The notes beneath the pieces were generated by a model that did not search any database, had not been told where the DNA came from, and was given only the letters and a program-made list of their open reading frames with translations. From the IMG/VR virus record IMGVR_UViG_3300042294_003246: a stretch of DNA of 64,000 nt. One strand, written 5' to 3'. The translations under genes and the position numbers were made by a program. Positions 53,847 to 64,000 of this stretch are shown piece after piece. Within the stretch, counting starts at the first letter, position 1, and every line of letters starts with the position of its first letter. The stretch is from a virus (lineage: Duplodnaviria; Caudoviricetes).

Positions 53847-55139
53847 ATGGAAAATTTAAAAGAACAACTTAACAGAATCAAATTATTATACAACTATAAT
53901 TTGAACGAAACTTATGAAGAAAACAAAATTAAACAGTCGTCCAAAAACTATTTGAATGAGGCTGCTGCCGAGGCCCTAATCGCAGCCAAGGAGTTGGGGA
54001 ACGCAGAAAGAGCCATCCTACATAATAGTTTAGAAACTGTAGTTGCCGATATAGGTGCAGTCACTATTAAAAATGAGAAAGGAATTTTTTCATCAACAAA
54101 AAATGTCGAAGAAATAGTGTTGGCGATGAAAGAAGGAAGAATTGCGGGTGCTGAGTTAGGTAATATTGGTAAGTCTCTCTTAAAAAGCCCGGCAACAAGC
54201 ACAGAGATTAAATCATTAGCAGCCGAACTGGTAACATCATTTCCATCTTTTGAACAAAAATATGGTATGTTAACAAGAGAACAAGCCGTAAACGAACTAA
54301 TGAATGGTCCTGGAAAATATACAAAAGGTGAAGCAGAAACTCTTATGAATAAGTATAAGTCGAGAAAAAGTCGAGTTGATCCAATCGAGCCCCCTAAGAC
54401 AGGTGAAGGACCGAAACCAAGTGAAGGACCGAAACCAAGTGAAGGACCGAAACCAAGTGAAGGACCTGTAAATCAAAATAATATCAACCTCAATATAACT
54501 AACCAAGTTCAATCCGAGGGATTTAAAATTGCGGAAGAGTATGGACCTCACATGGATGATGCAGCAAGAAAAAGAAAATGGAAAGACTCTCAAGATTGGT
54601 TAAAAAATGACGAAAGAGGGTTTATGGAAGAATATAATAGAGTTAGTAAGGGATCAAGACTTAGAAGAGGTCTTAATTGGGGTCGAAAAATTATGTCTTG
54701 GGGAACTCTTTGGGGAATATTTAAAATTGCGGGAATAGGTCTAACTTTATGGGCCGTATATAGTTTATTTACAGATAGTGGATGGAAAGTTAAAGACGAT
54801 GATAAAATAGATGATGATGACGGCGGAGGCGGCGGCGGAGACGATGACGGAGGAGGTGGAGGATCACCTGATGACGACCAAAACCAAGGAGTGTTGATCG
54901 ACGTTGATGGTAATAAATATATAGAATGCACACCACCTTATTATAAGGGTTGTGTCGCTAAAAAAGGAAATGACGACATAAGAAAGGCTCAAGATTGTTT
55001 GGGTGTAACACCTAATGGTTTCTTTAATAAAGAAACAGAAGACGCATTATATAAAAAAATAAACAAGAAAAGTTTTAGTCCATCAGATATGCCATCGATA
55101 TGTGCGACGAGTTATGGGGCTAGTAGATTCTCTTATTAA
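53847..55139 (+). CDS. MENLKEQL-leader protein with TM segment and C-terminal PG-binding-like domain
   Basis: Leader MENLKEQLNRIKLL...YLNEA; EGPKPS x3; TM; DDIRKAQDCLGVTPNGFFNKETEDAL. Confidence 0.65.
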   Translation: MENLKEQLNRIKLLYNYNLNETYEENKIKQSSKNYLNEAAAEALIAAKELGNAERAILHNSLETVVADIGAVTIKNEKGIFSSTKNVEEIVLAMKEGRIAGAELGNIGKSLLKSPATSTEIKSLAAELVTSFPSFEQKYGMLTREQAVNELMNGPGKYTKGEAETLMNKYKSRKSRVDPIEPPKTGEGPKPSEGPKPSEGPKPSEGPVNQNNINLNITNQVQSEGFKIAEEYGPHMDDAARKRKWKDSQDWLKNDERGFMEEYNRVSKGSRLRRGLNWGRKIMSWGTLWGIFKIAGIGLTLWAVYSLFTDSGWKVKDDDKIDDDDGGGGGGDDDGGGGGSPDDDQNQGVLIDVDGNKYIECTPPYYKGCVAKKGNDDIRKAQDCLGVTPNGFFNKETEDALYKKINKKSFSPSDMPSICATSYGASRFSY

Positions 55140-55153
55140 AAAATATAAAAAAA

Positions 55154-56917
55154 ATGGATATTTCAAAAAAACTAACACAAATCCTATTAGAACAAGAAGC
55201 TAGTAAAGAAACTAAAGGAGTTAATGTCTCCGATACAGGTAAAGTATTGCAAAATACTATTAATTTTTGCCAAGGTATATCTTTTCTAAAAGATAAGGCG
55301 ATTAAGTCTATGAGTAGAACATCACCAAAAGATACAACTAGCGGACAACCATTAATGGCTAAATTCAAAGATGTTTATAACTCGGGTAAAGAAAGTGTTG
55401 CCTTTGCTTCCGGAGACGATGGTAGTGGAAATATTATAGTTGTTTTTGGTATGCAAGATCCGAACTTAACAGATCAAGCATTATTAGGATACAGAGTTAC
55501 AACAGGAGCAGTTGCCGACAGGATAACTGACGGTATTGCAAAAGGGTGTCAATATTTACAAAAAATAGAAGATGTGGGACAAGCACAACTTTCGGCTTAT
55601 GATAGATCTAGACTTGATGCTTTTATTAAAAAACAAGGTGGTTTATTTACCTCAACTGATCCGAAAGATCCGTTGAACTATAGAGAATATAAAATGAAGA
55701 ATCTCAAAGACGCTGACGGATTACCTTTATTACAAAGTCCAGGTGAAGGTATTGTTTGGAAAAAAGTCGAACAAGATCAAGGAACTATGGGTGATGTTGC
55801 AGGTGAAGTTGATGACTTTATGAAAGAACAAGGATTTACAAAAAACAAACCAAAGGCAGGAACCGATGAAGCAAATTATGGGTTTTATCTAAAAGACGTT
55901 CAAGGAGATTTACCATCATTAAGTATTGATCCTGATATCAGAAATACAGGAATATATTTCCCTGACCCAAGTTATACAAGTGAATACGGTGGTTCAGTTT
56001 TGACTCCTGATAGAAAGGCTTGTAAATCTGTAATTAAAAGACTTTACGATTGCAAAACAAAAACAAACAAAGCAGGATGTTCCGCAAATCTATTTAGAGA
56101 TAAGTTTATTGCTCTTTCGTGTGGTGATAAAAACTTTATCGAAGGTCCTTTTGGAAAAGGAGATGAATATAAGGCAATTTTTTCAGATCCAGGTCCATAC
56201 GGATTGGCAAATCTAAACAGAGCAAGAGGTAAAGCGAAGTATTCTTCAATGACAGAATCTCTTAACAAAAAAATCAACAAAAGATTAAACGAAGATTTCA
56301 AAAGACTTTCTTTTAATAAAAAAAAAATTCAATTTGACAATCAACTAGTTGAGTCATTAGCAGATCAGTTGGTTGTAAGTGCATTATTCGACTTACAAAA
56401 AGATTTCAAAAAATTCCAAAGATTGGATGAAAATGCAATAACCGATTTTCTATCTAGTGCTGGAAGTAAAGCTTTAGAAGGCGGAAAAAACTTAGTTAGT
56501 AATTTAGGAAGTAAATTGGGAACGGGTCTAAGTCAAGGATTTAAAGAGACGATCGCAAAAAAAATAATTGGCTGGGCAGGTTTCGACCCAAATGGTTATT
56601 TCGCTCTTTTAATCGCTAATATTTTTGCAAATCTTGAATTTAAGGATTATATGAATTTTATTAGTGATTGTGAAAAGTTTAGTGAAATTATTACAAAATC
56701 AGCGTTAGAGGCGTGGTTAGATAAAGCAGTTGTATCAATGAAAGGTGGTGAAGCTGGAACTATATCAACTTTTGTTTATACGGCCCTAAAAAATACCGTA
56801 ACTGAGGCAGCAGCAAACACACCAGCATTTAGAGCATTAGAAGGGATGGCAACCAAAATTGTTTGTGGAATTATAGAAGGTGTAAAAGAGAGCGGGATTA
56901 TTACAAGTTTTTTCTAA
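55154..56917 (+). CDS. Leader-bearing multi-module protein
   Basis: MDISKKLTQILLEQ; internal MTES...RLNED...LVES...LDENA. Confidence 0.65.
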   Translation: MDISKKLTQILLEQEASKETKGVNVSDTGKVLQNTINFCQGISFLKDKAIKSMSRTSPKDTTSGQPLMAKFKDVYNSGKESVAFASGDDGSGNIIVVFGMQDPNLTDQALLGYRVTTGAVADRITDGIAKGCQYLQKIEDVGQAQLSAYDRSRLDAFIKKQGGLFTSTDPKDPLNYREYKMKNLKDADGLPLLQSPGEGIVWKKVEQDQGTMGDVAGEVDDFMKEQGFTKNKPKAGTDEANYGFYLKDVQGDLPSLSIDPDIRNTGIYFPDPSYTSEYGGSVLTPDRKACKSVIKRLYDCKTKTNKAGCSANLFRDKFIALSCGDKNFIEGPFGKGDEYKAIFSDPGPYGLANLNRARGKAKYSSMTESLNKKINKRLNEDFKRLSFNKKKIQFDNQLVESLADQLVVSALFDLQKDFKKFQRLDENAITDFLSSAGSKALEGGKNLVSNLGSKLGTGLSQGFKETIAKKIIGWAGFDPNGYFALLIANIFANLEFKDYMNFISDCEKFSEIITKSALEAWLDKAVVSMKGGEAGTISTFVYTALKNTVTEAAANTPAFRALEGMATKIVCGIIEGVKESGIITSFF

Positions 56918-56969
56918 TTTTTTTGGTGGTATAGTTTTTTTGTTTATCTTTGTATCAAATAATAGAAAA

Positions 56970-57713
56970 ATGAAAAATCCAATCAAAAGTTTAATTAGTG
57001 TTTTAGTTTTATGTCTAATCGTTTTTTGTCTATTAAATGATAAAATGCAAATTGCCATTTTAGAAAAGGTAGAAAAAATATTCAAAACAGATTTATCCAC
57101 ACTCAAACAAAATATCAAAAACGATGATTTATCGATTGGTGGTGGAAATACGGCCGAACCTTTTGATGAAAACAAATACAAATCTTATTCTGCCGAGTCG
57201 GTCGAGTATTTCAAGGAAATCGCTTTAGGTCGTGAATTTAAAAGTGATAGTGAAGTTCTTAAGCGTTGGGACAAGGACATGAAAATATATGTTGGAGGAA
57301 ACACCAATGAAGTTTTGAATAGTGAGTTGGAACGAATTGTATTGGAATTGAACAACATAATTGATCCCATCAATATCGAAATCGTTTCTGATTCATCATT
57401 ATCCAATATGTATATTTATTTTGGATCTTACAAAGATTTTAGTTTGATTAAACCAAACATTGATTATGGATTACTAAAGTCAAATTGGGGTCTTTTTATA
57501 GTTAAACAAAATTCAGGTTGTATGTATGTTGATATTCATAGGGCTAATGAACTCGAGCAAAAACATTTACTTCGTGAAGAATTAACACAATCTTTAGGTT
57601 TATGTGATGATTCTTACAAATATCCTGAAAGTATTTTTTATCAAGGTTGGACAACAACAACAGAATACGCACCGATTGATAGAGAACTAATTGACATGTT
57701 ATACAATAATTAG
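56970..57713 (+). CDS. DUF2927-like zincin-fold exported protein
   Basis: N-terminal TM; KHLLREELTQSLGL.DDS..YPESIFYQ; promoter TTTG-N19-TATCTTTG at 56922-56952; start ATG 56970. Confidence 0.7.
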   Translation: MKNPIKSLISVLVLCLIVFCLLNDKMQIAILEKVEKIFKTDLSTLKQNIKNDDLSIGGGNTAEPFDENKYKSYSAESVEYFKEIALGREFKSDSEVLKRWDKDMKIYVGGNTNEVLNSELERIVLELNNIIDPINIEIVSDSSLSNMYIYFGSYKDFSLIKPNIDYGLLKSNWGLFIVKQNSGCMYVDIHRANELEQKHLLREELTQSLGLCDDSYKYPESIFYQGWTTTTEYAPIDRELIDMLYNN

Positions 57714-57740
57714 TATATTTATAATAGTTCTTTGAATGTT

Positions 57741-57825
57741 AGAGGAGTGTCAGAGCGGTCGAATGAGGCGGTCTTGAAAACCGTTGATCTTTACGGATCC
57801 GGGGGTTCGAATCCCTCCTCCTCTG
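57741..57825 (+). tRNA. tRNA-Ser(UGA)
   Basis: AGAGGAG/CTCCTCT acceptor, loop CTTGAAA, long variable arm, TTCGAAT, G73. Confidence 0.9.
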
Positions 57826-57840
57826 CAAAATGTGAAATAT

Positions 57841-57912
57841 GGGTCCATAGTTAAACGGATATAACCCTAGCCTTCTAAGCTTGTATTCCTGGTTCGATTC
57901 CAGGTGGACCTA
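57841..57912 (+). tRNA. tRNA-Arg(UCU)
   Basis: GGGTCCA/TGGACCT acceptor, loop CTTCTAA, TTCGATT. Confidence 0.9.
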
Positions 57913-57975
57913 CTACTTTCCCATGAATTTCCCTGTGACAATTAGAACAAACTAAAATATATTTATATTAGTATT

Positions 57976-58089
57976 ATGGAAGACATACATCAACAAATTC
58001 ACGAGGAGTTTATTAACTCTGAAGATTATGATAAGTATCTTTATGATATTTATAATTATGAACCTCAACGAACAGATCCACAGGATTAA
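57976..58089 (+). CDS. Possible small acidic protein (37 aa)
   Basis: Manual translation MEDIHQQIHEEFINSEDYDKYLYDIYNYEPQRTDPQD, preceded by TATTTATA. Confidence 0.35.
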   Translation: MEDIHQQIHEEFINSEDYDKYLYDIYNYEPQRTDPQD

Positions 58090-58528
58090 AAACTTGATGT
58101 ATGAACAACCACAAGTCCAAATTGTATATAAAGGTGATTTAGATGGATACTTTGGAAAAAACATTGAGTTAACGTCTCCTGATAATAATACTATTGGTTT
58201 TATCCATATATCCAAAATGAATGATGGTGAAAATTTAGATCTGAACTTCAATACTTTATATGACGAATCCAAGTTTCAAACCATTCCATTAAATTATGAT
58301 AATTGTCTTTTTATGCACACTTTAGAGGTGGATGAAAACCATAGAAAACAGGGACATGGGTCACACTTATTAGATTTGGCACATGAATTTGCAAAAAATA
58401 ACGGATATAATTATCTATCTTTTATTTCTGATAATGATAATGAAATTGCAAACAACATTTATCAAAAAAGAGGTTATAAGTCATTAAATTCTAATGACAA
58501 TTCTAGTTTTTATTTTGTTGAATTGTAA
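58058..58528 (+). CDS. MNLNEQI-leader GNAT acetyltransferase
   Basis: Start ATG 58058: MNLNEQIHRIKNLMYEQ; LEVDENHRKQGHGSHLL; NEIANNIYQKRGY; TATTTATA at 58047-58054. Confidence 0.8.
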   Translation: MNLNEQIHRIKNLMYEQPQVQIVYKGDLDGYFGKNIELTSPDNNTIGFIHISKMNDGENLDLNFNTLYDESKFQTIPLNYDNCLFMHTLEVDENHRKQGHGSHLLDLAHEFAKNNGYNYLSFISDNDNEIANNIYQKRGYKSLNSNDNSSFYFVEL

Positions 58529-58548
58529 AAATTACTTATCTTTACAGT

Positions 58549-59046
58549 ATGACAAACAAATTACCATACGAAAAAACAGGAAATGCGATTAAAGGATATA
58601 GTGATTCTGCCATCGCCAAAGGAGAAACAAATGATTGTGTTGTTAGAGCATTTGCATCTTCATTCGATGTGTCTTATGATTACGCTCACAAATACGTTGC
58701 AGATGAGTTTGGAAGAAAACCAAGAAAAGGAACTTACGGGACTATAACAACTCTTGTTAAAATGGCCGACAGTTTGATCAAGGTTAACGGTAAAAAAGTT
58801 TGTCCTCTTGGAGTAAGACACAACGATCATTTGTTAAGATCATTAATGTATGATGTTAAAGTAAAAGGTGAGACTAAAAAAAGAAACATGACCGTTGGAA
58901 CATTTGTTAAACAAAACCCAAAAGGAACTTTCTTTGTATTGGTTAGAAGACACGCTTTTACAATCAAAGACGGTGTTGTAATTGGAAACCCTGAAGATTC
59001 AATTAAAACAAAACGACCTATGAGGTGTGCATTTGAGATAAAATAA
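58549..59046 (+). CDS. Conserved phage protein, possible papain-like Cys/His fold
   Basis: NDCVVRAFA...RRHAFTIKDG. Confidence 0.5.
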   Translation: MTNKLPYEKTGNAIKGYSDSAIAKGETNDCVVRAFASSFDVSYDYAHKYVADEFGRKPRKGTYGTITTLVKMADSLIKVNGKKVCPLGVRHNDHLLRSLMYDVKVKGETKKRNMTVGTFVKQNPKGTFFVLVRRHAFTIKDGVVIGNPEDSIKTKRPMRCAFEIK

Positions 59047-59050
59047 TATT

Positions 59051-59431
59051 ATGAAAACAATTTTTATTACTCTTTTATTTTTTACCTTCATTGGTTATTC
59101 TCAACCTTTGATGAGACAATATTCAAATATGGATTATCAGTCAATTGCGGAATCCAACTTTAAAAAAATAACCTTTAAACCAAAAAATGATTATGTTTAT
59201 AAACTTGATTATGGACAATTCCAATTGTCGGTAAGCACCAAATTAAAAAGGGTTCCCTTCCAGGATAAATTCTCTGATCTAACCGTGGACGATATTTTAT
59301 TTGCAGGTTCTTACGACATAAGGGCAAGATTTTACATATCTCCAAATGTTAAGGTGTTTCAACGAGCCTTTATCACAGGATTAAGTAATGGTCAAGTTTT
59401 TCATACGACAGGAGTTATAATAAAATTTTAG
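59051..59431 (+). CDS. Secreted hypothetical protein
   Basis: Signal peptide MKTIFITLLFFTFIGYS; C-terminal F after a beta-strand pattern. Confidence 0.55.
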   Translation: MKTIFITLLFFTFIGYSQPLMRQYSNMDYQSIAESNFKKITFKPKNDYVYKLDYGQFQLSVSTKLKRVPFQDKFSDLTVDDILFAGSYDIRARFYISPNVKVFQRAFITGLSNGQVFHTTGVIIKF

Positions 59432-59438
59432 AAAAAAA

Positions 59439-59469
59439 CTTGTCAATTAAAAAAAGATTACTATATTTG
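59439..59469 (+). promoter_or_regulatory. Host-type promoter of tRNA operon 1
   Basis: CTTG-N19-TATATTTG. Confidence 0.7.
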
Positions 59470-59515
59470 TAAAGAAATTGAAACTTTTTAAAAAAACGAT
59501 ATAATTATAATAAAA

Positions 59516-59620
59516 ATGAAAAATACACTCAAACATATGGTCAATTGTCTACCGAGCAATCAGTGGTCGTTTAGCTATATTACGCGAAATCAGTCGAGGG
59601 TATTTTCACTTATGAGTTAA
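59516..59620 (+). CDS. Putative attenuator leader peptide 1 (34 aa)
   Basis: MKNTLKHMVNCLPSNQWSFSYITRNQSRVFSLMS, between promoter and terminator; rich in GC-ending codons unusual for this genome. Confidence 0.6.
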   Translation: MKNTLKHMVNCLPSNQWSFSYITRNQSRVFSLMS

Positions 59621-59651
59621 AAACGTTTAACTAACATAATAAAAGGAATGT

Positions 59652-59688
59652 AAAACCCGAGACTTAAAAATCTCGGGTTTTTTGTTTT
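59652..59688 (+). terminator. Attenuator-type intrinsic terminator before tRNA operon 1
   Basis: AAAACCCGAGA-CTTAAAAA-TCTCGGGTTTTTTGTTTT. Confidence 0.8.
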
Positions 59689-59693
59689 ATATT

Positions 59694-59766
59694 GGCTCTG
59701 TAAGCATTGATGGCGATGCGTCTGACTTGTAATCAGAAGAAATCAGTTCGAATCTGGTACGGAGCT
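59694..59766 (+). tRNA. tRNA-Thr(UGU)
   Basis: GCTCTGT/ACGGAGC acceptor, TCTGA-CTTGTAA-TCAGA. Confidence 0.8.
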
Positions 59767-59771
59767 CAAAA

Positions 59772-59786
59772 AGGTTCTTTGACATA
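59772..59786 (+). promoter_or_regulatory. boxA-like antitermination element
   Basis: AGGTTCTTTGACATA, identical at 62789-62803; GTTCTTTGA also at 57727 and 63490. Confidence 0.65.
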
Positions 59787-59800
59787 TTGGTTTCATAAAT

Positions 59801-59871
59801 TGTCTCGTAGCCTAAAGGCAGGGCACCGGATTTTGACTCCGGGTGTGTTGGTTCGAGTCCAGCCGAGACAA
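59801..59871 (+). tRNA. tRNA-Gln(UUG)
   Basis: TGTCTCG/CGAGACA acceptor, CCGGA-TTTTGAC-TCCGG. Confidence 0.88.
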
Positions 59872-59878
59872 CGATAAT

Positions 59879-59965
59879 GGAAGAGTAATCACAACGGCTT
59901 GTGACTCCGTCTTGAAAACGGCAGGTACTGAAAGGTATGGGGATCGACACCTCACTCTTCCTCCA
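59879..59965 (+). tRNA. tRNA-Ser(UGA), atypical (ATCGACA T-loop, U73, encoded CCA)
   Basis: GGAAGAG/CTCTTCC acceptor, loop CTTGAAA, long variable arm. Confidence 0.75.
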
Positions 59966-59968
59966 TAT

Positions 59969-60041
59969 AGGGTAGTTGACTAATTGGTAAGTCACCACGT
60001 TTGGGACGTGGACGATGCAAGTTCGAGTCTTGTCTACCCTA
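59969..60041 (+). tRNA. tRNA-Pro(UGG)
   Basis: AGGGTAG/CTACCCT acceptor, CCACG-TTTGGGA-CGTGG. Confidence 0.88.
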
Positions 60042-60101
60042 CTATAAATAAACAAATAAAAAAACAAGTATCATGGAAAGTGACAAGTATGACAAACAAA
60101 A

Positions 60102-60174
60102 CCCCTCGTAGCTTAATCGGGAAAGCACCATACTTTTAATATGGGGAGAGTCGGATCGTAACCGGCCGGGGGGA
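60102..60174 (+). tRNA. tRNA-Lys(UUU), ATCGTAA T-loop
   Basis: CCCCTCG/CGGGGGG acceptor, CCATA-CTTTTAA-TATGG. Confidence 0.8.
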
Positions 60175-60246
60175 CAAAAAAAATTTAGTAAAACTGAGCG
60201 TTCATTACCAAAAAGTGGTTACTTTTGTTCTGAAAAACTAAAACAA

Positions 60247-60320
60247 GCACCTTTAGCTCAGCAGGTAGTAGCGGTTGTTTTACATACAACAGGTCACAGG
60301 TTCGATCCCTGTAGGGTGCA
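60247..60320 (+). tRNA. tRNA-Val(UAC)
   Basis: GCACCTT/AGGGTGC acceptor, GTTGT-TTTACAT-ACAAC. Confidence 0.88.
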
Positions 60321-60383
60321 CGAGGAGACTGTTACTAATTCATAGACCTTATGTGGACGACGGTATCATAGAATTAGATTTTT

Positions 60384-60464
60384 GGGAGAGTTGAGCAATT
60401 GGTTGGCTCAGCAGACTGTAAATCTGTCGCGAAAGCCTTGGGGGTTCGAGTCCCTCCTCTCCCA
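60384..60464 (+). tRNA. tRNA-Tyr(GUA)
   Basis: GGGAGAG/CTCTCCC acceptor, loop CTGTAAA, long variable arm. Confidence 0.9.
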
Positions 60465-60468
60465 CACT

Positions 60469-60540
60469 GGACTGGTAGCTCAGAGGCAGAGCAAAACCCT
60501 GTTAAGGTTGAGGTCGAGATATCGTAATTCTCCCAGTCCG
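60469..60540 (+). tRNA. tRNA-Asn(GUU), ATCGTAA T-loop
   Basis: GGACTGG/CCAGTCC acceptor, loop CTGTTAA, G73. Confidence 0.82.
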
Positions 60541-60550
60541 CAAAAAACTA

Positions 60551-60627
60551 CGGCACATATACCCTCCGTCTGATACGCGGTTGAAAGGTTAATAGGTCCC
60601 ATGTAGGTTCGATTCCTACTGTGCCGA
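60551..60627 (+). tRNA. tRNA-Ile(GAU)-like, D-armless with extended variable region
   Basis: CGGCACA/TGTGCCG acceptor, perfect T arm, CCGT-CTGATAC-GCGG; only 8 nt where the D arm belongs. Confidence 0.6.
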
Positions 60628-60631
60628 CTAC

Positions 60632-60715
60632 GGAAGATAAACCTTGATGGAGATAGGGTCCGCCTGCTAAGCGAGATGTACCTTCGGGTATTTGGTTCGA
60701 TTCCAATGTCTTCCG
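60632..60715 (+). tRNA. tRNA-Ser(GCU)
   Basis: GGAAGAT/GTCTTCC acceptor, loop CTGCTAA, long variable arm, G73. Confidence 0.8.
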
Positions 60716-60740
60716 CAACTTATGACAAAAAATAATTCAT

Positions 60741-61094
60741 ATGAATGACAGATATAAAAAAATAGATGAAAAATCAAAAATAGTTACAGATGGATTGGGT
60801 TGTAAAATTGACGATGGTATAAGAGAGTTAATTGTTTTACTTAATTATAATAACATCGGAACAACACAATCTTGTTGGGGACACAAAAATTGGGGTGAAA
60901 AATTTCCTTGGTTTGACATTAAGAATGAATATCATAAGAATATAGAAAACATTATTTTTGATTTAGAAATTGAATTTGAGAAACTTGGTGATGATACAAT
61001 AAGATTTTACCCAAAGTGTAAAAAATTGATAAAGGGTAGAAAAGAGTTTAACAAGTTAAAAGACAAACTAAAACAAATTAGTAATTTTTTATAA
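60741..61094 (+). CDS. Hypothetical protein inside the tRNA operon
   Basis: 117-aa ORF; TTQSCWGH motif. Confidence 0.6.
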   Translation: MNDRYKKIDEKSKIVTDGLGCKIDDGIRELIVLLNYNNIGTTQSCWGHKNWGEKFPWFDIKNEYHKNIENIIFDLEIEFEKLGDDTIRFYPKCKKLIKGRKEFNKLKDKLKQISNFL

Positions 61095-61097
61095 TCT

Positions 61098-61167
61098 GCC
61101 GATAGGAAAGGTTTCCGGTCCGGGCTCATATCCTGGATGTCATTTGGTTCGATACCCTTTATCGGTA
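61098..61167 (+). tRNA. tRNA(CAU) (Met or Ile2), atypical/degenerate
   Basis: GCCGATA/TATCGGT acceptor, TCCGGG-CTCATAT-CCTGGA; T stem only partly paired. Confidence 0.55.
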
Positions 61168-61173
61168 CTACAT

Positions 61174-61247
61174 GGTGTATGTAGCTCAGTTGGCAGAGTG
61201 CTTGATTGTGGGTCAAGAGGTCATGGGTTCGACCCCCATCATACACA
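61174..61247 (+). tRNA. tRNA-His(GUG)
   Basis: G-1, GTGTATG/CATACAC acceptor, CTTGA-TTGTGGG-TCAAG; discriminator A. Confidence 0.88.
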
Positions 61248-61253
61248 CAAAAT

Positions 61254-61326
61254 ACCTTCGTAGTTCAATTGAAAAGAACCTGTGACTACGGATCACAAGA
61301 TGGGAGTTTGAGTCTCTCCGAAGGTA
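61254..61326 (+). tRNA. tRNA-Arg(ACG)
   Basis: ACCTTCG/CGAAGGT acceptor, TGTGA-CTACGGA-TCACA. Confidence 0.88.
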
Positions 61327-61334
61327 CAATATTT

Positions 61335-61409
61335 GCGTCGTAGCTTATGGAAGCGGCAGGCCTCCAAAACCTCGCATAGACATGGGTTCGATTCCCTGAC
61401 GACGCGCCA
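61335..61409 (+). tRNA. tRNA-Trp(CCA), atypical
   Basis: GCGTCG/CGACGC acceptor, loop CTCCAAA, 4-nt D loop, G73-CCA. Confidence 0.65.
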
Positions 61410-61414
61410 AATAA

Positions 61415-61487
61415 GGACCGGTAGCTCAGTTGGTAGAGCGCTAGACTGAAGATCTAGGCGTGGATGGTTCGATTCCGTCCCGGTCCA
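61415..61487 (+). tRNA. tRNA-Phe(GAA)
   Basis: GGACCGG/CCGGTCC acceptor, CTAGA-CTGAAGA-TCTAG. Confidence 0.92.
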
Positions 61488-61510
61488 CAAACAATTAAAA
61501 AGGAGATAAA

Positions 61511-61966
61511 ATGAACCGAGTATTTAGAAAGGTTGATGGAAATCCAGTTTCTGACATATCAAAACACACTTTGGATATTTTAAATGAATGTCCTTATGTT
61601 GAAATTCATGTTGGAACTGATTCTCAAAACCACAGAAGATCGACTGTATATGTAACCGCAATAGCATATCGGTATGGAAACCGCGGAGTTCACTATATAT
61701 ATCACAAACATAAGGTTAAAAAAATTCGTGATAAGTGGACAAGGTTATGGAATGAAGCCGATTATTCAATTGAGGTTGCAAACTTTTTAACAAGTAAGGT
61801 GAATGTTAAACTTGAGATTGATCTTGATTATAACGCTCAAGAACAACACTTTAGTTCAAAGTTGGTTGGTCCTGCGGTTGGGTGGGTTAATTCTTTGGGT
61901 TATAAGGCGAATATTAAACCTGATAACCAAATTGCAACAAAGGCGGCAGATTTTCATTGTCGTTAA
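61511..61966 (+). CDS. RNase H-like YkuK (DUF458) family protein
   Basis: HVGTDSQ, RLWNEADYSIEVA, EIDLDYN, KAAD; has an AAGGAG Shine-Dalgarno site, rare in this window. Confidence 0.8.
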   Translation: MNRVFRKVDGNPVSDISKHTLDILNECPYVEIHVGTDSQNHRRSTVYVTAIAYRYGNRGVHYIYHKHKVKKIRDKWTRLWNEADYSIEVANFLTSKVNVKLEIDLDYNAQEQHFSSKLVGPAVGWVNSLGYKANIKPDNQIATKAADFHCR

Positions 61967-61968
61967 TT

Positions 61969-62040
61969 GGTCGGGTGTCTGATAGGTAAAGTCCAGATCT
62001 GCAAAATCTCGGTATGTGGGTTCGAATCCCACCCTGACCT
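61969..62040 (+). tRNA. tRNA-Cys(GCA)
   Basis: GGTCGGG/CCTGACC acceptor, loop CTGCAAA, U73. Confidence 0.9.
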
Positions 62041-62048
62041 CAACAAAT

Positions 62049-62122
62049 GCCCCTATGGCGGAATTGGCATACGCATGTGATTTAGGATCACAATTTTGCA
62101 GGTTCGAGTCCTGCTGGGGGCA
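62049..62122 (+). tRNA. tRNA-Leu(UAG) with short variable loop
   Basis: GCCCCTA/TGGGGGC acceptor, TGTGA-TTTAGGA-TCACA, 5-nt variable region. Confidence 0.85.
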
Positions 62123-62194
62123 CAAAAAATAGTATATATACTAAATTTTAGATTTTTTCTAAAATAATAACTTTTTGATCTCATATTTATTAAT

Positions 62195-62584
62195 ATGAAA
62201 AAAATAATAAGAATTACAGAATCTGATTTGACTAACATAGTTAAACGAGTGATTAAAGAAAATGAAAATAATAGATTAGGTAAAGTTTATTTCAATAACG
62301 AGAATTATCCTGGATTTATGTATGTTAAAGAAATATTACCTAAATATCAAATGTATTGGGTTGGGACTATGACAAATGAAGTATTACCTACTGAATTAAT
62401 AAAAGATGATGATATGGATATCTATTGGTTAGAATCACCCGATGGTAAAACATTTGGTTACGAACTTTTTGAAGATGATTTAAAAGGTAAAAAATATTTA
62501 GTTTTAGATTTAGTTGACCCACAAGAAATTGAGAAATATCTAAGAAATGGCGGTGAATGGTTCCCAAGTCACTACGAGGCGTAA
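62195..62584 (+). CDS. MKKIIRITESDL leader family protein
   Basis: MKKIIRITESDLTNIVKRVIKEN; TATTTAT at 62184-62190. Confidence 0.75.
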   Translation: MKKIIRITESDLTNIVKRVIKENENNRLGKVYFNNENYPGFMYVKEILPKYQMYWVGTMTNEVLPTELIKDDDMDIYWLESPDGKTFGYELFEDDLKGKKYLVLDLVDPQEIEKYLRNGGEWFPSHYEA

Positions 62585-62606
62585 ATTAAAAAAATAATCC
62601 ATAAAA

Positions 62607-62639
62607 CTTGACACTTTCAAAAAGTATCATATATTTATA
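62607..62639 (+). promoter_or_regulatory. Composite promoter of tRNA operon 2
   Basis: CTTG-N19-TATATTTA, also containing TATTTATA (62632-62639). Confidence 0.6.
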
Positions 62640-62662
62640 ACTACAAAACTTAAAAAACGCAA

Positions 62663-62731
62663 ATGAAAAATTTACACATATCATTGTTAGGGGGCGATTT
62701 AGCTGAGGCAACTTTCAAGGAGAGGGTGTAA
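62663..62731 (+). CDS. Putative attenuator leader peptide 2 (22 aa)
   Basis: MKNLHISLLGGDLAEATFKERV; Leu codons TTA, TTG, TTA, TTA; directly upstream of terminator and tRNA-Leu(UAA). Confidence 0.6.
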   Translation: MKNLHISLLGGDLAEATFKERV

Positions 62732-62754
62732 TATTTTATACATATAATATTTAG

Positions 62755-62788
62755 AACCCCTCCCCAAAAAGAGGGGTTTTTTTGTTTT
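62755..62788 (+). terminator. Attenuator-type intrinsic terminator before tRNA operon 2
   Basis: AACCCCTC-CCCAAAAA-GAGGGGTT then TTTTTGTTTT. Confidence 0.8.
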
Positions 62789-62814
62789 AGGTTCTTTGAC
62801 ATAATGGTAATAAT

Positions 62815-62899
62815 GGTTCGGTGGTGGAATTGGCGATACACGACAGGTTTAAGCCCTGTTTCCCATTGAGGATTGTGGGTTCGAGTCCCACCCGGACTA
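62815..62899 (+). tRNA. tRNA-Leu(UAA)
   Basis: GGTTCGG/CCGGACT acceptor, ACAGG-TTTAAGC-CCTGT, long variable arm. Confidence 0.88.
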
Positions 62900-62903
62900 C
62901 AAT

Positions 62904-63000
62904 GAAAACACAAAACTTTGGTTCCCACACAGCGGTGAGACGGGCTAAGTTAGATACAATTTCTCGGGGCTGGGAGTAGGAAGCCAAAGAGTGTGTTTTT
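62904..63000 (+). ncRNA. Unidentified structured RNA candidate
   Basis: Closing helices AAAACACA/TGTGTTTT and CTTTGG-TTCC/GGAA-CCAAAG; inner CAGC/GCTG and GAGA/TCTC. Confidence 0.35.
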
Positions 63001-63004
63001 TTTA

Positions 63005-63055
63005 AAAATATTTTACAAAGTGTTTGGCAGATCAAAATAATCTACATATATTTGT
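63005..63055 (+). repeat. 51-bp promoter repeat, copy 1
   Basis: Near-identical to 63380-63430; contains TTTG (63023-26)-N20-TATATTTG (63047-54). Confidence 0.8.
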
Positions 63056-63071
63056 AGAAACAATAAAACAT

Positions 63072-63410
63072 ATGGGAACTTACATTTACACTTACAAGAA
63101 AAAATTAGATAAGAAGGCAACTCTTGATGGACAAGAAGTTATTGTTGGTGAAGCTACTTTTTTATGTAAACAAGATTGGTCAGGAAATTACACACCACAA
63201 GAAAAACGTGAAATGACAAGAGCTACATGTTTACTTGAAAACGATCAACCGGATTATATTACATTCGGTGAAGAAGTTTATAAAAATAATAAGCGTGGTA
63301 TTTGGACTGATGGTAGCGGTTTTTGGACCGGAATCGATTACAAAAAAGACTATGTTGGAAAGTTAGAAAAAATTGGTAGAAAATATTTTATAAAGTGTTT
63401 GGCAAATTAA
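63072..63410 (+). CDS. Hypothetical protein
   Basis: Start ATG 63072 behind the host promoter; C-terminus runs through repeat copy 2. Confidence 0.65.
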   Translation: MGTYIYTYKKKLDKKATLDGQEVIVGEATFLCKQDWSGNYTPQEKREMTRATCLLENDQPDYITFGEEVYKNNKRGIWTDGSGFWTGIDYKKDYVGKLEKIGRKYFIKCLAN

Positions 63411-63430
63411 AATAAACTTCTTATATTTGT
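63380..63430 (+). repeat. 51-bp promoter repeat, copy 2
   Basis: TTTG (63398-401)-N20-TATATTTG (63422-29). Confidence 0.8.
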
Positions 63431-63610
63431 CAAACAAACGGGGGTGAGAAAATGTGATGGTGGACTCACCCCCACACAAAAGGAAGAAAGTTCTTTGATT
63501 TAAGATATTGTGGTTGTAAGCAAGGGGAAACTCGTAAAGTTCATTAACCAGTTGGCTCAAGATGGTGAAACGAGAGTGTGAGTCAACTACTAAATCACAA
63601 ATAAAATATT

Positions 63611-63743
63611 GTCAGGTGGGCGTAATGAGGGATGGTACCCGAGTCCCCAAGACCAATAGTCCCCGACACTTGGGGGTTCTATGGAGTCGTAAGGTTGTCT
63701 ATCCCGTCTAGAACGGTATCCGGTTCGAGTCCGGCCCTGACTA
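63611..63743 (+). ncRNA. Expanded tRNA-like RNA 1 (~133 nt)
   Basis: GTCAGG/CCTGAC acceptor-like stem, CCGG-TTCGAGT-CCGG T arm, internal 11-bp helix. Confidence 0.55.
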
Positions 63744-63749
63744 ACAAAC

Positions 63750-63890
63750 AGGCAAATGGCGGAAGAAGAGTTAACCATACTCGTGGCAGACGTTAAGGTA
63801 TATTTCCCGTAAGAAGTTAACCGAGGCATAGCTGGGAATGTCTATTGAAAATAGATCTATGTCGTACAGGTTCGAGTCCTGTTTTGCCTA
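63750..63890 (+). ncRNA. Expanded tRNA-like RNA 2 (~141 nt), GAA anticodon-like loop
   Basis: AGGCAAA/TTTGCCT acceptor, ACAGG-TTCGAGT-CCTGT T arm, GTCTA-TTGAAAA-TAGAT arm, two insertions. Confidence 0.6.
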
Positions 63891-63897
63891 CAAATAT

Positions 63898-63980
63898 CGC
63901 GGGATAGTAAGTAGTTGGTAGCTGGCGAGGCTCATAACCTCGTGTCTTTGACCCCGGTGGTTCGAGCCCACCTCCCGCAA
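63898..63980 (+). tRNA. Initiator tRNA-fMet(CAU) with enlarged variable region
   Basis: C1-A72 mismatch (CGCGGGA/TCCCGCA), CGAGG-CTCATAA-CCTCG, ~13-nt variable region. Confidence 0.8.
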
Positions 63981-64000
63981 CACAATTTGGTTTGGTAGTC

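Follow-up and report, generated by a model that had tools for sequence, protein, structure and literature searches.

A candidate leader-peptide attenuator with a codon-matched leader ORF upstream of a giant-phage tRNA array

Organization of the tRNA locus

The window, i.e., the whole 64,000-nucleotide stretch of DNA analysed here, belongs to a giant phage from lake water. It carries a tRNA array (array 1) preceded by a short open reading frame (ORF) and an intrinsic terminator, and a second module built from the same kinds of parts. The features are as follows.

59440–59469, plus strand: promoter-like site TTG-N19-TAnnTTTG (pattern match)
59516–59620, plus strand: leader ORF, 34 codons and TAA, with 16 different amino acids (ORF list and conservation)
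59516–59530, plus strand: segment 1 (anti-antiterminator), start codon region, TGAAAA and ACACTC (predicted pairing)
59592–59608, plus strand: segment 2 (antiterminator), codons 26–31, AGTCGAGGGT then ATTTTCA (predicted pairing)
59616–59631, plus strand: stop-codon hairpin of 6 bp, GTTAAA-AACG-TTTAAC (RNAalifold, conserved)
59652–59688, plus strand: intrinsic terminator (segments 3 and 4) with T-run, −15.4 kcal/mol
59695–59767, plus strand: tRNA-Thr(UGU), putative first regulated gene (ARAGORN/Rfam)
59774–59786, plus strand: boxA-like motif GTTCTTTGACATA (recurring motif)
59801–62123, plus strand: remainder of tRNA array 1 (ARAGORN, Rfam, relaxed ARAGORN)
60741–61094 and 61511–61966, plus strand: two ORFs embedded in array 1
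62608–62900, plus strand: second module (promoter-like site, ORF, terminator, boxA, tRNA-Leu(UAA))
62663–62731, plus strand: leader 2 ORF, 22 codons (24 CDS variants, in-frame indels)
62753–62787, plus strand: leader 2 terminator

The promoter-like site, the 34-codon ORF, the strong terminator and the array of 17 tRNAs described in an earlier, sequence-only reading of this DNA are all present where that reading had placed them. The promoter motif follows what we take to be the Bacteroidota −33/−7 type consensus and is kept in every aligned relative; as eight such sites occur in the window vs 2.5 expected, the call is a consensus match only. The terminator stem comprises 11 pairs (59652–59662/59671–59681), three of which show compensatory changes, with both sides altered, among relatives, and its T-run extends to 59688. 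Since tRNA-Thr(UGU) begins at 59695, 6–11 nt past the T-run, there is no space for a promoter between the two, and the ORF is separated from the tRNAs by a terminator with no promoter in between. In the interior of array 1 in this window, neither a strict promoter motif nor a strong terminator was found. The boxA-like motif resembles the boxA of rRNA operons and may be a Nus factor (NusB/NusE) antitermination site; boxA-like GTTCTTTGA occurs at 57727, 59774, 62791 and 63490, precedes most tRNA blocks in relatives, and is also present after tRNA-Thr in all of them.

ARAGORN at default settings identifies 13 tRNAs in 59695–62123. Four others pass relaxed thresholds only: Ser(UGA) (59879–59965), Ser(GCU) (60632–60716) and Met(CAU) (61096–61166) are called solely at a relaxed ARAGORN threshold, and Ile(GAU) (60551–60627) scores 28.9 bits in Rfam vs a gathering score of 29. 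With these four counted, Thr is followed by Gln, Ser, Pro, Lys, Val, Tyr, Asn, Ile, Ser, Met, His, Arg, Trp, Phe, Cys and Leu(UAG), and array 1 serves 16 amino acids, having no tRNA for Ala, Asp, Glu or Gly. An Arg(UCU) tRNA, located within the array in relatives, lies upstream in the window, at 57841.

Two contigs from RNA libraries are identical to the window, at 59432–59644 and 59528–59722. The former starts upstream of the promoter-like site and the latter spans the terminator into tRNA-Thr; such contigs may include DNA, and are not informative on transcript ends or levels. No RNA-library contigs were found on the flanking protein genes.

The leader ORF and its codons

The leader peptide is composed of the same 16 amino acids that array 1 serves (four of the tRNAs at relaxed thresholds), and its Leu codons are CTC, CTA and CTT and its Ile codon ATT, all as previously read. 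Under phage protein composition the exact set has P = 2 × 10−6, other estimates for it run up to about 4 × 10−5, and all estimates of chance fall between about 10−4 and 10−6. The sequence-only reading had also raised the question whether random ORFs of equal length match as often; they almost never do: of 27,283 windows of 34 codons without a stop, taken from six frames across the 64 kb, the exact set occurs at just two loci, one of them the leader. Array 1 can decode 32 of 33 leader codons, compared with 66% of phage gene codons (P = 2 × 10−5); AGG, at codon 28, is unread by its Arg(ACG). The putative regulatory codons of leader 1 are hence cognate to the product that they would regulate. Codon choice is also divided between the two leaders of the window: the Leu codons of leader 1, which precedes Leu(UAG), are CTN and those of leader 2, which precedes Leu(UAA), are TTR, and Ile is ATT in the former and mostly ATA in the latter.

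Comparison of 31 leader sequence variants from related IMG/VR phages indicates that the ORF is real and kept under frame-preserving selection. It is maintained as a short 5′ leader ORF of 34–37 codons with start and stop codons retained, its six indel sites are all multiples of three, whereas indels outside are not, and none of the 31 variants has an in-frame stop despite the AT-rich sequence. Conservation of the ORF in relatives, on which the sequence-only reading had staked its case, is thereby confirmed. These observations argue against a non-coding leader RNA, i.e., a processing signal or a small RNA for the tRNA precursor, in which the ORF would be incidental. Strong nucleotide-level conservation, conserved helices, the presence of the leader region in RNA libraries and a weak match to Rfam Thr_leader (33.2 bits) would all suit such an RNA, however, it would account neither for the indel pattern and the lack of stops nor for an ORF that ends 20–35 nt ahead of the terminator in all of the sequence-unrelated modules considered below, and no Rfam family reaches its own threshold at the leader. 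We regard a non-coding role as extremely improbable.

Where residues are conserved, the codons are identical in 87% of cases in the leader ORF vs 53% in the flanking 151-aa gene, and amino-acid identity of the peptide among variants is only about 50%, which suggests a constraint on codons or RNA and not on a protein. Suppressed synonymous change combined with frequent amino-acid change is the reverse of purifying selection on a protein, and it makes it quite unlikely that the ORF is simply a gene for a small protein, equipped with a promoter and terminator of its own; the tRNAs would in that case be transcribed by leakage past the terminator or from promoters elsewhere, and the match in composition would be coincidental. 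Such promoter/small gene/terminator units are frequent in large phages, the peptide motifs KHM, P-S-x-Q-W-S-F and R-A/V-F-S-F/L-M-S are conserved, and a promoter follows the terminator in L123-type contigs; nevertheless, the peptide matches no Pfam family, Cys, Val and Gln are retained across variants by shifting position, the gap between terminator and tRNA-Thr is too short for a promoter, co-variation links the tail of the ORF to the terminator arm, both in the two leaders of the window and in the majority of other modules, and the match in composition (P of 10−4 to 10−6) is replicated elsewhere.

All 16 amino acids of the array are present in 30 of the 31 variants. The exact equality of leader and array sets, claimed for the window and found there, is limited to one clade, because about two thirds of the relatives add Ala (GCA, codon 32); a few contain Asp or Gly. 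These extra codons are confined to the last eight codons, and array 1 is without the corresponding tRNAs.

Alternative pairings of the leader RNA

A pairing between the ORF end and the terminator 5′ arm through tandem GA pairs had been proposed from the sequence alone. The predicted pairing itself stands, and its register is better given as AGTCGAGGGT (59592–59601) with ACCCGAGACT (59655–59664), the latter being the 5′ arm plus the edge of the loop. Two blocks of 4 bp flank the tandem G·A, with a predicted energy of −12.7 kcal/mol (shuffle P = 0.0095; P = 0.19 with a shorter arm), and in a fold omitting the 3′ arm the terminator 5′ arm is paired with a probability of about 1. An antiterminator is predicted in the window and, at −10 to −14 kcal/mol, in clades a and b and in L036, but is weak (−5.2 kcal/mol) in clade c, the largest; the class matrix is not cleanly diagonal.

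A further predicted pairing, absent from the earlier description, is that of segment 1 with 59596–59608, at −9.5 kcal/mol in the window. Native segment 1:2 pairs have a mean of −10.2 kcal/mol vs −8.05 kcal/mol for swapped ones (P < 3 × 10−4; 25 variants, relatedness ignored), and compensatory versions occur (CUUAGAC/GUCUAGG and CUAAUA/UAUUAG). For the window alone the shuffle P is 0.053; the pairing is predicted in all variants, in a register that differs between clades. The stop-codon hairpin also carries compensatory changes (RNAalifold, 29 sequences): 19 sequences have UA and 8 have AU at pair 119–124, and pair 117–126 is AU or GU. With the predicted segment 1:2 helix, the competing helix between segment 2 and the 5′ terminator arm, and the terminator hairpin, the modelled RNA has all four segments expected in an attenuator of the trp type.

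Two known classes of regulatory RNA were considered for the locus. Region 59608–59687, essentially the terminator region, matches Rfam Thr_leader (RF00506) with E = 0.0034, but its 33.2 bits fall below the gathering score of 55. The T-box covariance model (specifier loop and T-box sequence) gave no match at E ≤ 1 in 55000–64000.

Leader 2 is paralogous to leader 1 and shares its design. The codons at its end, GGAGAGGG, duplicate the 3′ arm of the terminator; their co-variation with the 5′ arm is clear, at 7.7 of 8 pairs (permutation P < 2 × 10−4, relatedness ignored) and with at least three independent compensatory changes. Of the 21 codons of leader 2, 4 are TTR, compared with 5% in phage genes.

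Leader/array matches across phages and proposed attenuation

Whether leader content follows the downstream anticodons across relatives was the comparison called for by the sequence-only reading, and its outcome is positive. It extends to 25 sequence-unrelated modules, in which leaders fit their own arrays far better than permuted ones (P < 5 × 10−5, relatedness ignored), with a summed z-score of 49.6 vs −1.7 ± 6.3 and a coverage of 0.96 vs 0.78; pairing between ORF tail and terminator arm is significant in 17 of the 25. L057, whose one array serves all 20 amino acids, has a leader of 47 codons in which all 20 occur; among its codons are TTA, TTG, ATA, GCG, GGC, GAC and GAG, which the leader in the window avoids. 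In L059, the eight tRNAs of the array are cognate to 17 of the 27 leader codons (P = 10−3), and the leader ends in codons that include GGATCCAG, which copies the terminator 3′ arm; this leader and those of L058 and L061 match their own arrays, not permuted arrays. Small arrays provide extreme matches: the 18-residue leader of L238, with five Gln, three Pro and one His, precedes only Pro, His and Gln tRNAs, and the leader of L219, rich in Ser, Arg and Trp, precedes tRNAs for these three.

Switch anatomy by itself requires no particular codons, and leader peptides that respond to stalling in general are known, e.g., that of mef/mel (PMC4335068). A generic translation-coupled attenuator that reports the activity of ribosomes overall (their availability, host shut-off, toxins that target them), with codon identity irrelevant to sensing, would also be in line with the Ala, Asp and Gly codons that have no cognate tRNAs, and with arrays that have lost many tRNAs (L070, L011, L044 and L006) and retain the old leader, the leaders of the first three not following the losses. 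Such a device would, however, leave unexplained why leaders fit their own arrays and not others, the matches of L238 and L219, the 20 amino acids in L057, and the CTN/TTR and ATT/ATA split between the two leaders of the window, and we consider it unlikely.

Another candidate is a threonine-specific attenuator that mainly controls tRNA-Thr(UGU), with transcription of the remaining array driven beyond boxA or by promoters elsewhere. tRNA-Thr(UGU) is the first tRNA behind leader 1 in every relative, Thr-Thr occupies codons 3–4, within segment 1, in most of them, the L059 leader has five Thr among 28 residues, and leader 2, with Leu(UUR) codons before tRNA-Leu(UAA), offers a parallel. On the other hand, the leader in the window has just two Thr codons, coverage of the 16 amino acids is conserved, and tRNA-Thr is not separated from the next tRNAs by any promoter in the window. 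Arrays of other phages begin with other tRNAs, and their leaders are not enriched for that residue (Cys in L124). A response to Thr alone is thus highly improbable.

We consider it likely, on comparative grounds, that a ribosome-mediated leader-peptide transcription attenuator gates the phage tRNA operon and that the leader ORF serves as a codon panel for the downstream tRNAs. Given a codon-matched leader ORF and a switchable terminator in front of the array, the phage probably produces the array tRNAs only if decoding of those codons is slow. The attenuator interpretation had been put forward in the sequence-only reading, and it is supported by ORF conservation together with leader/array co-variation in relatives and unrelated phages. 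Some relatives have promoters within the array or past the terminator, so not every tRNA depends on read-through.

We infer that the ORF is translated, that translation and transcription are kinetically coupled, and that the outcome responds to tRNA supply. Transcription would begin 5′ of the ORF, and a ribosome would load on the A-rich leader and translate the 34 codons, with segment 2 (59592–59608) having segment 1 (59516–59530) and the terminator 5′ arm (59655–59664) as alternative partners. With fast decoding, the ribosome at the last codons or the stop would mask segment 2, the terminator would form, and RNA polymerase would halt about 10 nt short of tRNA-Thr. If any sampled codon were slow, owing to a scarce, cleaved or uncharged tRNA, the ribosome would lag, segment 2 would pair with the terminator 5′ arm, and polymerase would enter tRNA-Thr, pass the boxA-like element and transcribe the entire array. 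A point against this scheme is that a stall in mid-ORF would leave segment 1 free, and segments 1 and 2 might then pair around the ribosome. In the absence of translation, segments 1 and 2 would pair and the terminator would form.

No published description of leader-peptide attenuation for phage tRNA arrays was found. Among enterobacterial leader-peptide attenuators, those of ilvGMEDA (Ile/Val/Leu) and thr (Thr/Ile) are multivalent, and trp, his, leu and pheA are of the same general type. The phage element shares with them a short leader ORF, an intrinsic terminator, predicted mutually exclusive 1:2, 2:3 and 3:4 pairings, putative regulatory codons cognate to the regulated product, and the sampling of more than one amino acid. 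Unlike them, it precedes tRNA genes instead of biosynthetic enzymes, samples 16 amino acids (as many as 20 in relatives), most of them a single time and not in runs of one to three, has the start codon within segment 1, and belongs to a phage with Bacteroidota-type signals; to the thr attenuator it bears no sequence relationship by the Thr_leader score. E. coli pheST, with its pheM leader, is an example of leader-peptide attenuation of phenylalanyl-tRNA synthetase and is closer in that the translation apparatus is regulated and slow decoding raises the supply of a decoding component; however, pheST concerns a synthetase, one amino acid and a cellular gene, whereas the phage element would control a whole tRNA array. 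T-box riboswitches sense the state of a particular tRNA, bind the uncharged tRNA directly and need no ORF. The choice between terminator and antiterminator and the proposed sensing of tRNA state are common to both, but the phage element has a conserved ORF and no T-box match.

The mef(E)/mel leader peptide gates resistance genes by transcription attenuation on ribosome stalling (PMC4335068), and a leader upstream of mexXY is another example of ribosome-stalling attenuation (PMC13041342). A short leader ORF with terminator and antiterminator, and read-through upon stalling, are features that the phage element would have in common with both; in these systems, though, ribosome-bound drugs act via particular nascent peptides, whereas the composition of the phage leader tracks the downstream tRNA set.

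Leader ORF and tRNA array 1

In the window, tRNA array 1 (59695–62123) is preceded by a 34-codon ORF, referred to as leader 1, and a terminator; a second module with a 22-codon ORF, leader 2, follows the array.

Features of the two leader modules
59440–59469, promoter-like site TTG-N19-TAnnTTTG, consensus match
Between the promoter-like site and the ORF, A-rich untranslated stretch
59516–59620, leader ORF, 34 codons
59616–59631, 6-bp hairpin containing the stop codon of the ORF
59652–59662 and 59671–59681, stem of a strong intrinsic terminator, T-run to 59688, -15.4 kcal/mol
From 59695, tRNA-Thr(UGU)
59774, boxA-like GTTCTTTGACATA
Up to 62123, a further 16 tRNAs and two ORFs
62608–62900, second module: promoter-like site, 22-codon ORF, terminator, boxA, tRNA-Leu(UAA)

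Thirteen array tRNAs are called by ARAGORN with default settings; a relaxed threshold is required for Ser(UGA) (59879–59965), Ser(GCU) (60632–60716) and Met(CAU) (61096–61166), and Ile(GAU) (60551–60627) scores 28.9 bits in Rfam, slightly below the gathering score. Relatives have normally called tRNAs at the equivalent positions, and the four may be degenerate or unusual. Counting them, the array serves 16 amino acids, and these are identical to the set in the leader peptide, as proposed from the sequence alone and now borne out with ARAGORN and Rfam. Array-readable codons make up 32 of 33 in the leader versus 66% in the phage genes (P = 2e-5). The exception at the codon level is AGG: tRNA-Arg(UCU) is located upstream in the window, at 57841, but within the array in relatives. 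The tRNAs past base 64000 are deduced solely from close relatives (L003 type). Two protein ORFs, 60741–61094 and 61511–61966, are embedded in the array, and the latter, of 151 residues, is found with 64–98% identity in more than 60 IMG/VR contigs, invariably directly before tRNA-Cys. ORFs inserted in the arrays of relatives are often accompanied by a promoter-like site of their own.

A chance origin of the match is improbable: for a 34-mer with the protein composition of the phage itself, use of exactly these 16 amino acids has P = 2e-6, and among 27,283 stop-free 34-codon windows (six frames, 64 kb) the exact set is found only in the leader and at one other locus. The codon choice noted earlier also holds, in that Leu is encoded only by CTN and Ile only by ATT, unlike in the phage genes, where TTA or TTG accounts for 68% of the Leu codons and ATA for 31% of the Ile codons.

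Conservation and RNA pairing of leader 1

Two protein-anchored scans of IMG/VR yielded 106 loci from one family of lake-water phages of about 270–300 kb, and window DNA is also found in lake-water metagenome runs; a search of GenBank phages returned matches to individual tRNAs only and no relative. DNA identity in the leader region is 72–95% across the 106 loci, all of which retain the ORF, as 31 distinct peptides of 34–37 residues. The conservation on which the sequence-only reading depended is thus present, and the indels at six sites within the ORF are all multiples of three, versus 1, 2, 5 or 6 nt just outside it. Amino-acid identity across the variants is only about 50%; conserved residues use the same codon in 87% of cases, versus 53% in the flanking 151-residue gene at the same loci. 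A protein under purifying selection does not evolve in this way; the pattern is that expected for a translated regulatory ORF in which codons and RNA structure are constrained. The invariant codons include CCG, CAG, TCG and ACG, which are presumably uncommon in a genome this rich in A+T, usage being tabulated for Leu and Ile only. A Pfam search with both leader peptides gave no match.

Three terminator pairs and one pair of the stop-codon hairpin show changes on both sides across relatives. In folds that omit the terminator 3′ arm, the pairing probability of the 5′ arm with AGTCGAGGGT (59592–59601) is about 1. The partner in this predicted antiterminator is ACCCGAGACT (59655–59664), with 4 + 4 bp flanking tandem G·A pairs and an energy of -12.7 kcal/mol. 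This predicted pairing lies close to the antiterminator suggested in the sequence-only reading, but it is shifted and extends into the terminator loop. Its energy is matched in 0.95% of shuffled ORF tails when the test arm includes the 3 loop nt into which the pairing extends; an earlier test, with the arm ending at the stem end, gave P = 0.19. The strength of the antiterminator depends on the clade of leader variants: clades a and b and the L036 group reach -10 to -14 kcal/mol, clade d -7 to -8, and clade c only -5.2. An alternative antiterminator, CCGAG (codons 13–14) with the terminator 3′ arm, was dropped as it is broken in variants.

A further predicted pairing, overlooked in the sequence-only reading, joins the first codons of the ORF (TGAAAA and ACACTC, 59517–59530; segment 1) with its 3′ part at 59596–59608 (within segment 2). 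It is found in all variants, including compensatory versions such as CUUAGAC/GUCUAGG and CUAAUA/UAUUAG, and its native mean energy is -10.2 kcal/mol versus -8.05 kcal/mol after swaps between variants (P < 3e-4); for the window by itself the shuffle P is 0.053. Pairs in the leader-2 terminator and in segment 1 of leader 1 were counted by custom scripts, since the MAFFT columns there are shifted between clades. With the terminator arms as segments 3 and 4, the predicted pairings add up to the four segments known from trp-type attenuators. At the ORF end, a ribosome would cover segment 2 and let the terminator form, a lagging ribosome would leave segment 2 free to capture the terminator 5′ arm, and with no ribosome segment 1 would pair with segment 2 and termination would follow; the kinetics of all three states are those we infer.

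Six RNA runs match a small part of the window, and four metatranscriptome runs (X16, X17, X20 and X21) were compared in detail. Contigs identical to the window cover 59432–59644 (X17) and 59528–59722 (X16), the latter spanning the terminator and extending 34 nt into tRNA-Thr, and near-identical contigs in X20 cover 59570–59683 and 59654–59755, so that three of the four studies compared contain leader-region contigs. X16, X17 and X20 have no contig on the flanking protein genes (59051–59431 and 61511–61966), which is only a hint, and X21 has one contig at 59000–59230, overlapping the upstream gene. The promoter-like site would place the transcription start 44 nt downstream of where the X17 contig begins. 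These contigs, which show neither ends, strand nor levels and may include DNA carry-over, are consistent with a short, abundant leader RNA and a degree of read-through.

Leader content and tRNA arrays beyond the window

Within the family, all 16 amino acids are present in 30 of the 31 variants, and exactly those 16 in nine, including the most divergent ones (L036, L007 and L010), which have less than half of their residues in common with the window's peptide. Cys, Val and Gln are retained among the variants through shifts to other positions. Codon 32 is GCA (Ala) in about two thirds of the variants, and codon 29 encodes Asp or Gly in a few; the exact equality of peptide and array thus stands for the window, but it is clade-specific. 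The extra residues are confined to the last eight codons, which are constrained by pairing, and where a stalled ribosome would mask segment 2 anyway. Four loci (L070, L011, L044 and L006) have arrays that lost tRNAs and kept the old leader.

Leader 2 persists in 24 coding variants, the indels of which keep the reading frame. Its final codons, GGAGAGGG, repeat the sequence of the terminator 3′ arm and show co-variation with the 5′ arm, as seen in the pairs GGAGAGGG/CCCTCTCC, GGAGATGG/CCATCTCC, GAAGATGG/CCATCTTC and GAAGAGGG/CCCTCTTC, with a mean of 7.7 of 8 positions paired (permutation P < 2e-4). TTR codons make up 4 of 21 in leader 2 versus 5% in the phage genes. A role of leader 2 as the complement of leader 1 for Gly, Glu, Asp and Ala is a weaker reading than the Leu(UUR) one, because the downstream tRNAs for these four carry their own promoter and boxA in relatives, with a promoter-like site at 63399 in the window. 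Several relatives have a promoter inserted between the leader-2 terminator and tRNA-Leu, or the tRNA is missing, and in L069 and L071 a leader-2-like terminator lies behind an ordinary gene, without a leader ORF.

The locus L057 (identical in L127) has no second leader; its tRNAs form a single array without interruption that serves all 20 amino acids, Leu(UAA), Ile(UAU), Gly, Ala, Asp and Glu among them, and the tRNA immediately behind the terminator is confirmed by Rfam. Its leader of 47 codons contains all 20 amino acids (P = 0.005 to 0.017 for a 47-mer) and has TTA, TTG, ATA, GCG, GGC, GGG, GAC and GAG. An unrelated 28-codon leader at L058, L059 and L061, the last codons of which contain GGATCCAG, a copy of its own terminator 3′ arm, precedes an array of Thr, Gly, (Ser), Leu, Leu, Arg, Met and Ile(UAU), and 17 of its 27 codons are cognate to this array versus 32% expected (P = 1e-3). 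In the leader-by-array matrix, significance is found on the diagonal only. L124 is uninformative for the match because the contig end cuts its array (9 of 31 codons readable, P = 0.76), and L129 and L130 have no tRNAs. L123 (6467–6740, reverse-complemented; also L108 and L119) has a 30-codon ORF with 18 amino acids, a terminator, a promoter-like site, boxA and a 23-tRNA array, with leader unit and array promoter in series; such modules are uninformative for exclusivity because the promoter follows the terminator and the array is nearly complete.

A scan of IMG/VR with the boxA-like motif added 110 new loci, to which a blind rule was applied: the longest ATG ORF of 13–71 codons ending 5–80 nt before a terminator, followed by a tRNA or by boxA and a tRNA. 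It returned 25 modules without sequence relationship to the window's leaders, among them the probable false positives L225 (ORF within tRNA sequence) and L165, conservatively kept in the statistics. For codons readable by the module's own array the summed z is 49.6, versus -1.7 ± 6.3 for permuted arrays with a maximum of 26.6 (20,000 permutations, which ignore relatedness; the modules differ in sequence and array content). The leader covers on average 0.96 of the array's amino acids versus 0.78 ± 0.03 when permuted, and coverage is complete in 20 of 25. Pairing of the last 36 nt of the ORF with the terminator 5′ arm beats 95% of shuffles in 17 of 25, with a median of -15.1 kcal/mol. The match is most evident where arrays are small. 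The array of L238 has tRNAs for Pro, His and Gln only, and its 18-residue leader includes five Gln, three Pro and one His (P = 3e-6); at L219, where the tRNAs are for Ser (four), Arg (three) and Trp (one), the leader ahead of them is rich in these three residues (P = 7e-6). The leader of L136 is rich in Asp, Glu and Val ahead of tRNAs for Asp, Glu and Val, and at L167 both the 48-residue leader and the 26 tRNAs behind it span all 20 amino acids. The strongest alternative, a translation-coupled attenuator in which codon identity plays no part, would share with a codon-matched one the ORF wired to the terminator; the advantage of own over permuted arrays in the 25 modules, together with the matches at L057 and L059, is the co-variation of leader content with downstream anticodons anticipated by the sequence-only reading. 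Judged from sequence comparisons, the element is probably a codon-matched leader-peptide attenuator of the tRNA array.

Known attenuators and tRNA units without a leader ORF

Multivalent leader-peptide attenuators control the amino-acid operons ilvGMEDA and thr, and another attenuator controls pheST. The phage element resembles them in having an ORF, a terminator, an antiterminator and cognate codons, and differs in its carrier, phages, in the regulated product, tRNA genes, and in sampling 16–20 amino acids, mostly with one or few codons each. Membership in the Rfam family Thr_leader was rejected (33.2 bits versus a threshold of 55, the match being mostly to the terminator region); the element reached none of the Rfam leader families and had no T-box match in Rfam. 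The usual view of phage tRNA genes, whose regulation is little understood, is that they are constitutive passengers, serving to adjust codon usage or to make good the tRNAs lost to host defences; within the incomplete coverage of the full-text literature no account of phage tRNA arrays governed by leader peptides was found.

We lean towards a broader view in which phages with large tRNA sets commonly carry modular codon-panel attenuators, where a mini-ORF sampling the codons of its block is wired to a terminator and antiterminator. Such a self-correcting tRNA homeostat would respond to depletion of host tRNAs, to their cleavage by anticodon-nuclease defences or to phage codon usage that outpaces them by switching the block on, and would switch it off again once decoding recovers; the leader would be rewritten as the array gains or loses tRNAs. 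If the leader reads the decoding speed of array-served codons, these phages would measure tRNA sufficiency and respond to it. Attenuation of the trp/his/ilv type would then extend to tRNA genes, phages and Bacteroidota-type hosts, and from one to three sensed amino acids to 16–20. For each array, the leader would reveal the member tRNAs of the unit and the inducing shortages. Such leaders would be natural sensors of codon-specific translation speed and could be used to study how phage tRNA supply contends with defences that target tRNAs. Leader mini-ORFs and their terminators are worth annotating because they mark tRNA operon boundaries.

The motif GTTCTTTGA(C/A/T), which resembles the boxA of rRNA operons, is found at 57727, 59774, 62791 and 63490, just before or inside tRNA blocks in the window and in relatives, and tRNA units without a leader ORF carry a promoter and this boxA-like motif instead. 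At 63399–63600 a promoter-like site, a G+C-rich hairpin (about 63441–63475), a boxA-like motif and a conserved stretch follow one another, an arrangement that recurs in L069 (12860–13000) and L071 (11110–11260) and looks like a boxB/boxA antitermination region of the rRNA-leader type ahead of tRNAs. Further downstream, at 63611–63890, two stretches, marked as giant tRNA-like RNAs in the sequence-only reading, end in good T-arm-like sequences (GGTTCGAGTCC) and are called as tRNA by neither ARAGORN nor Rfam.
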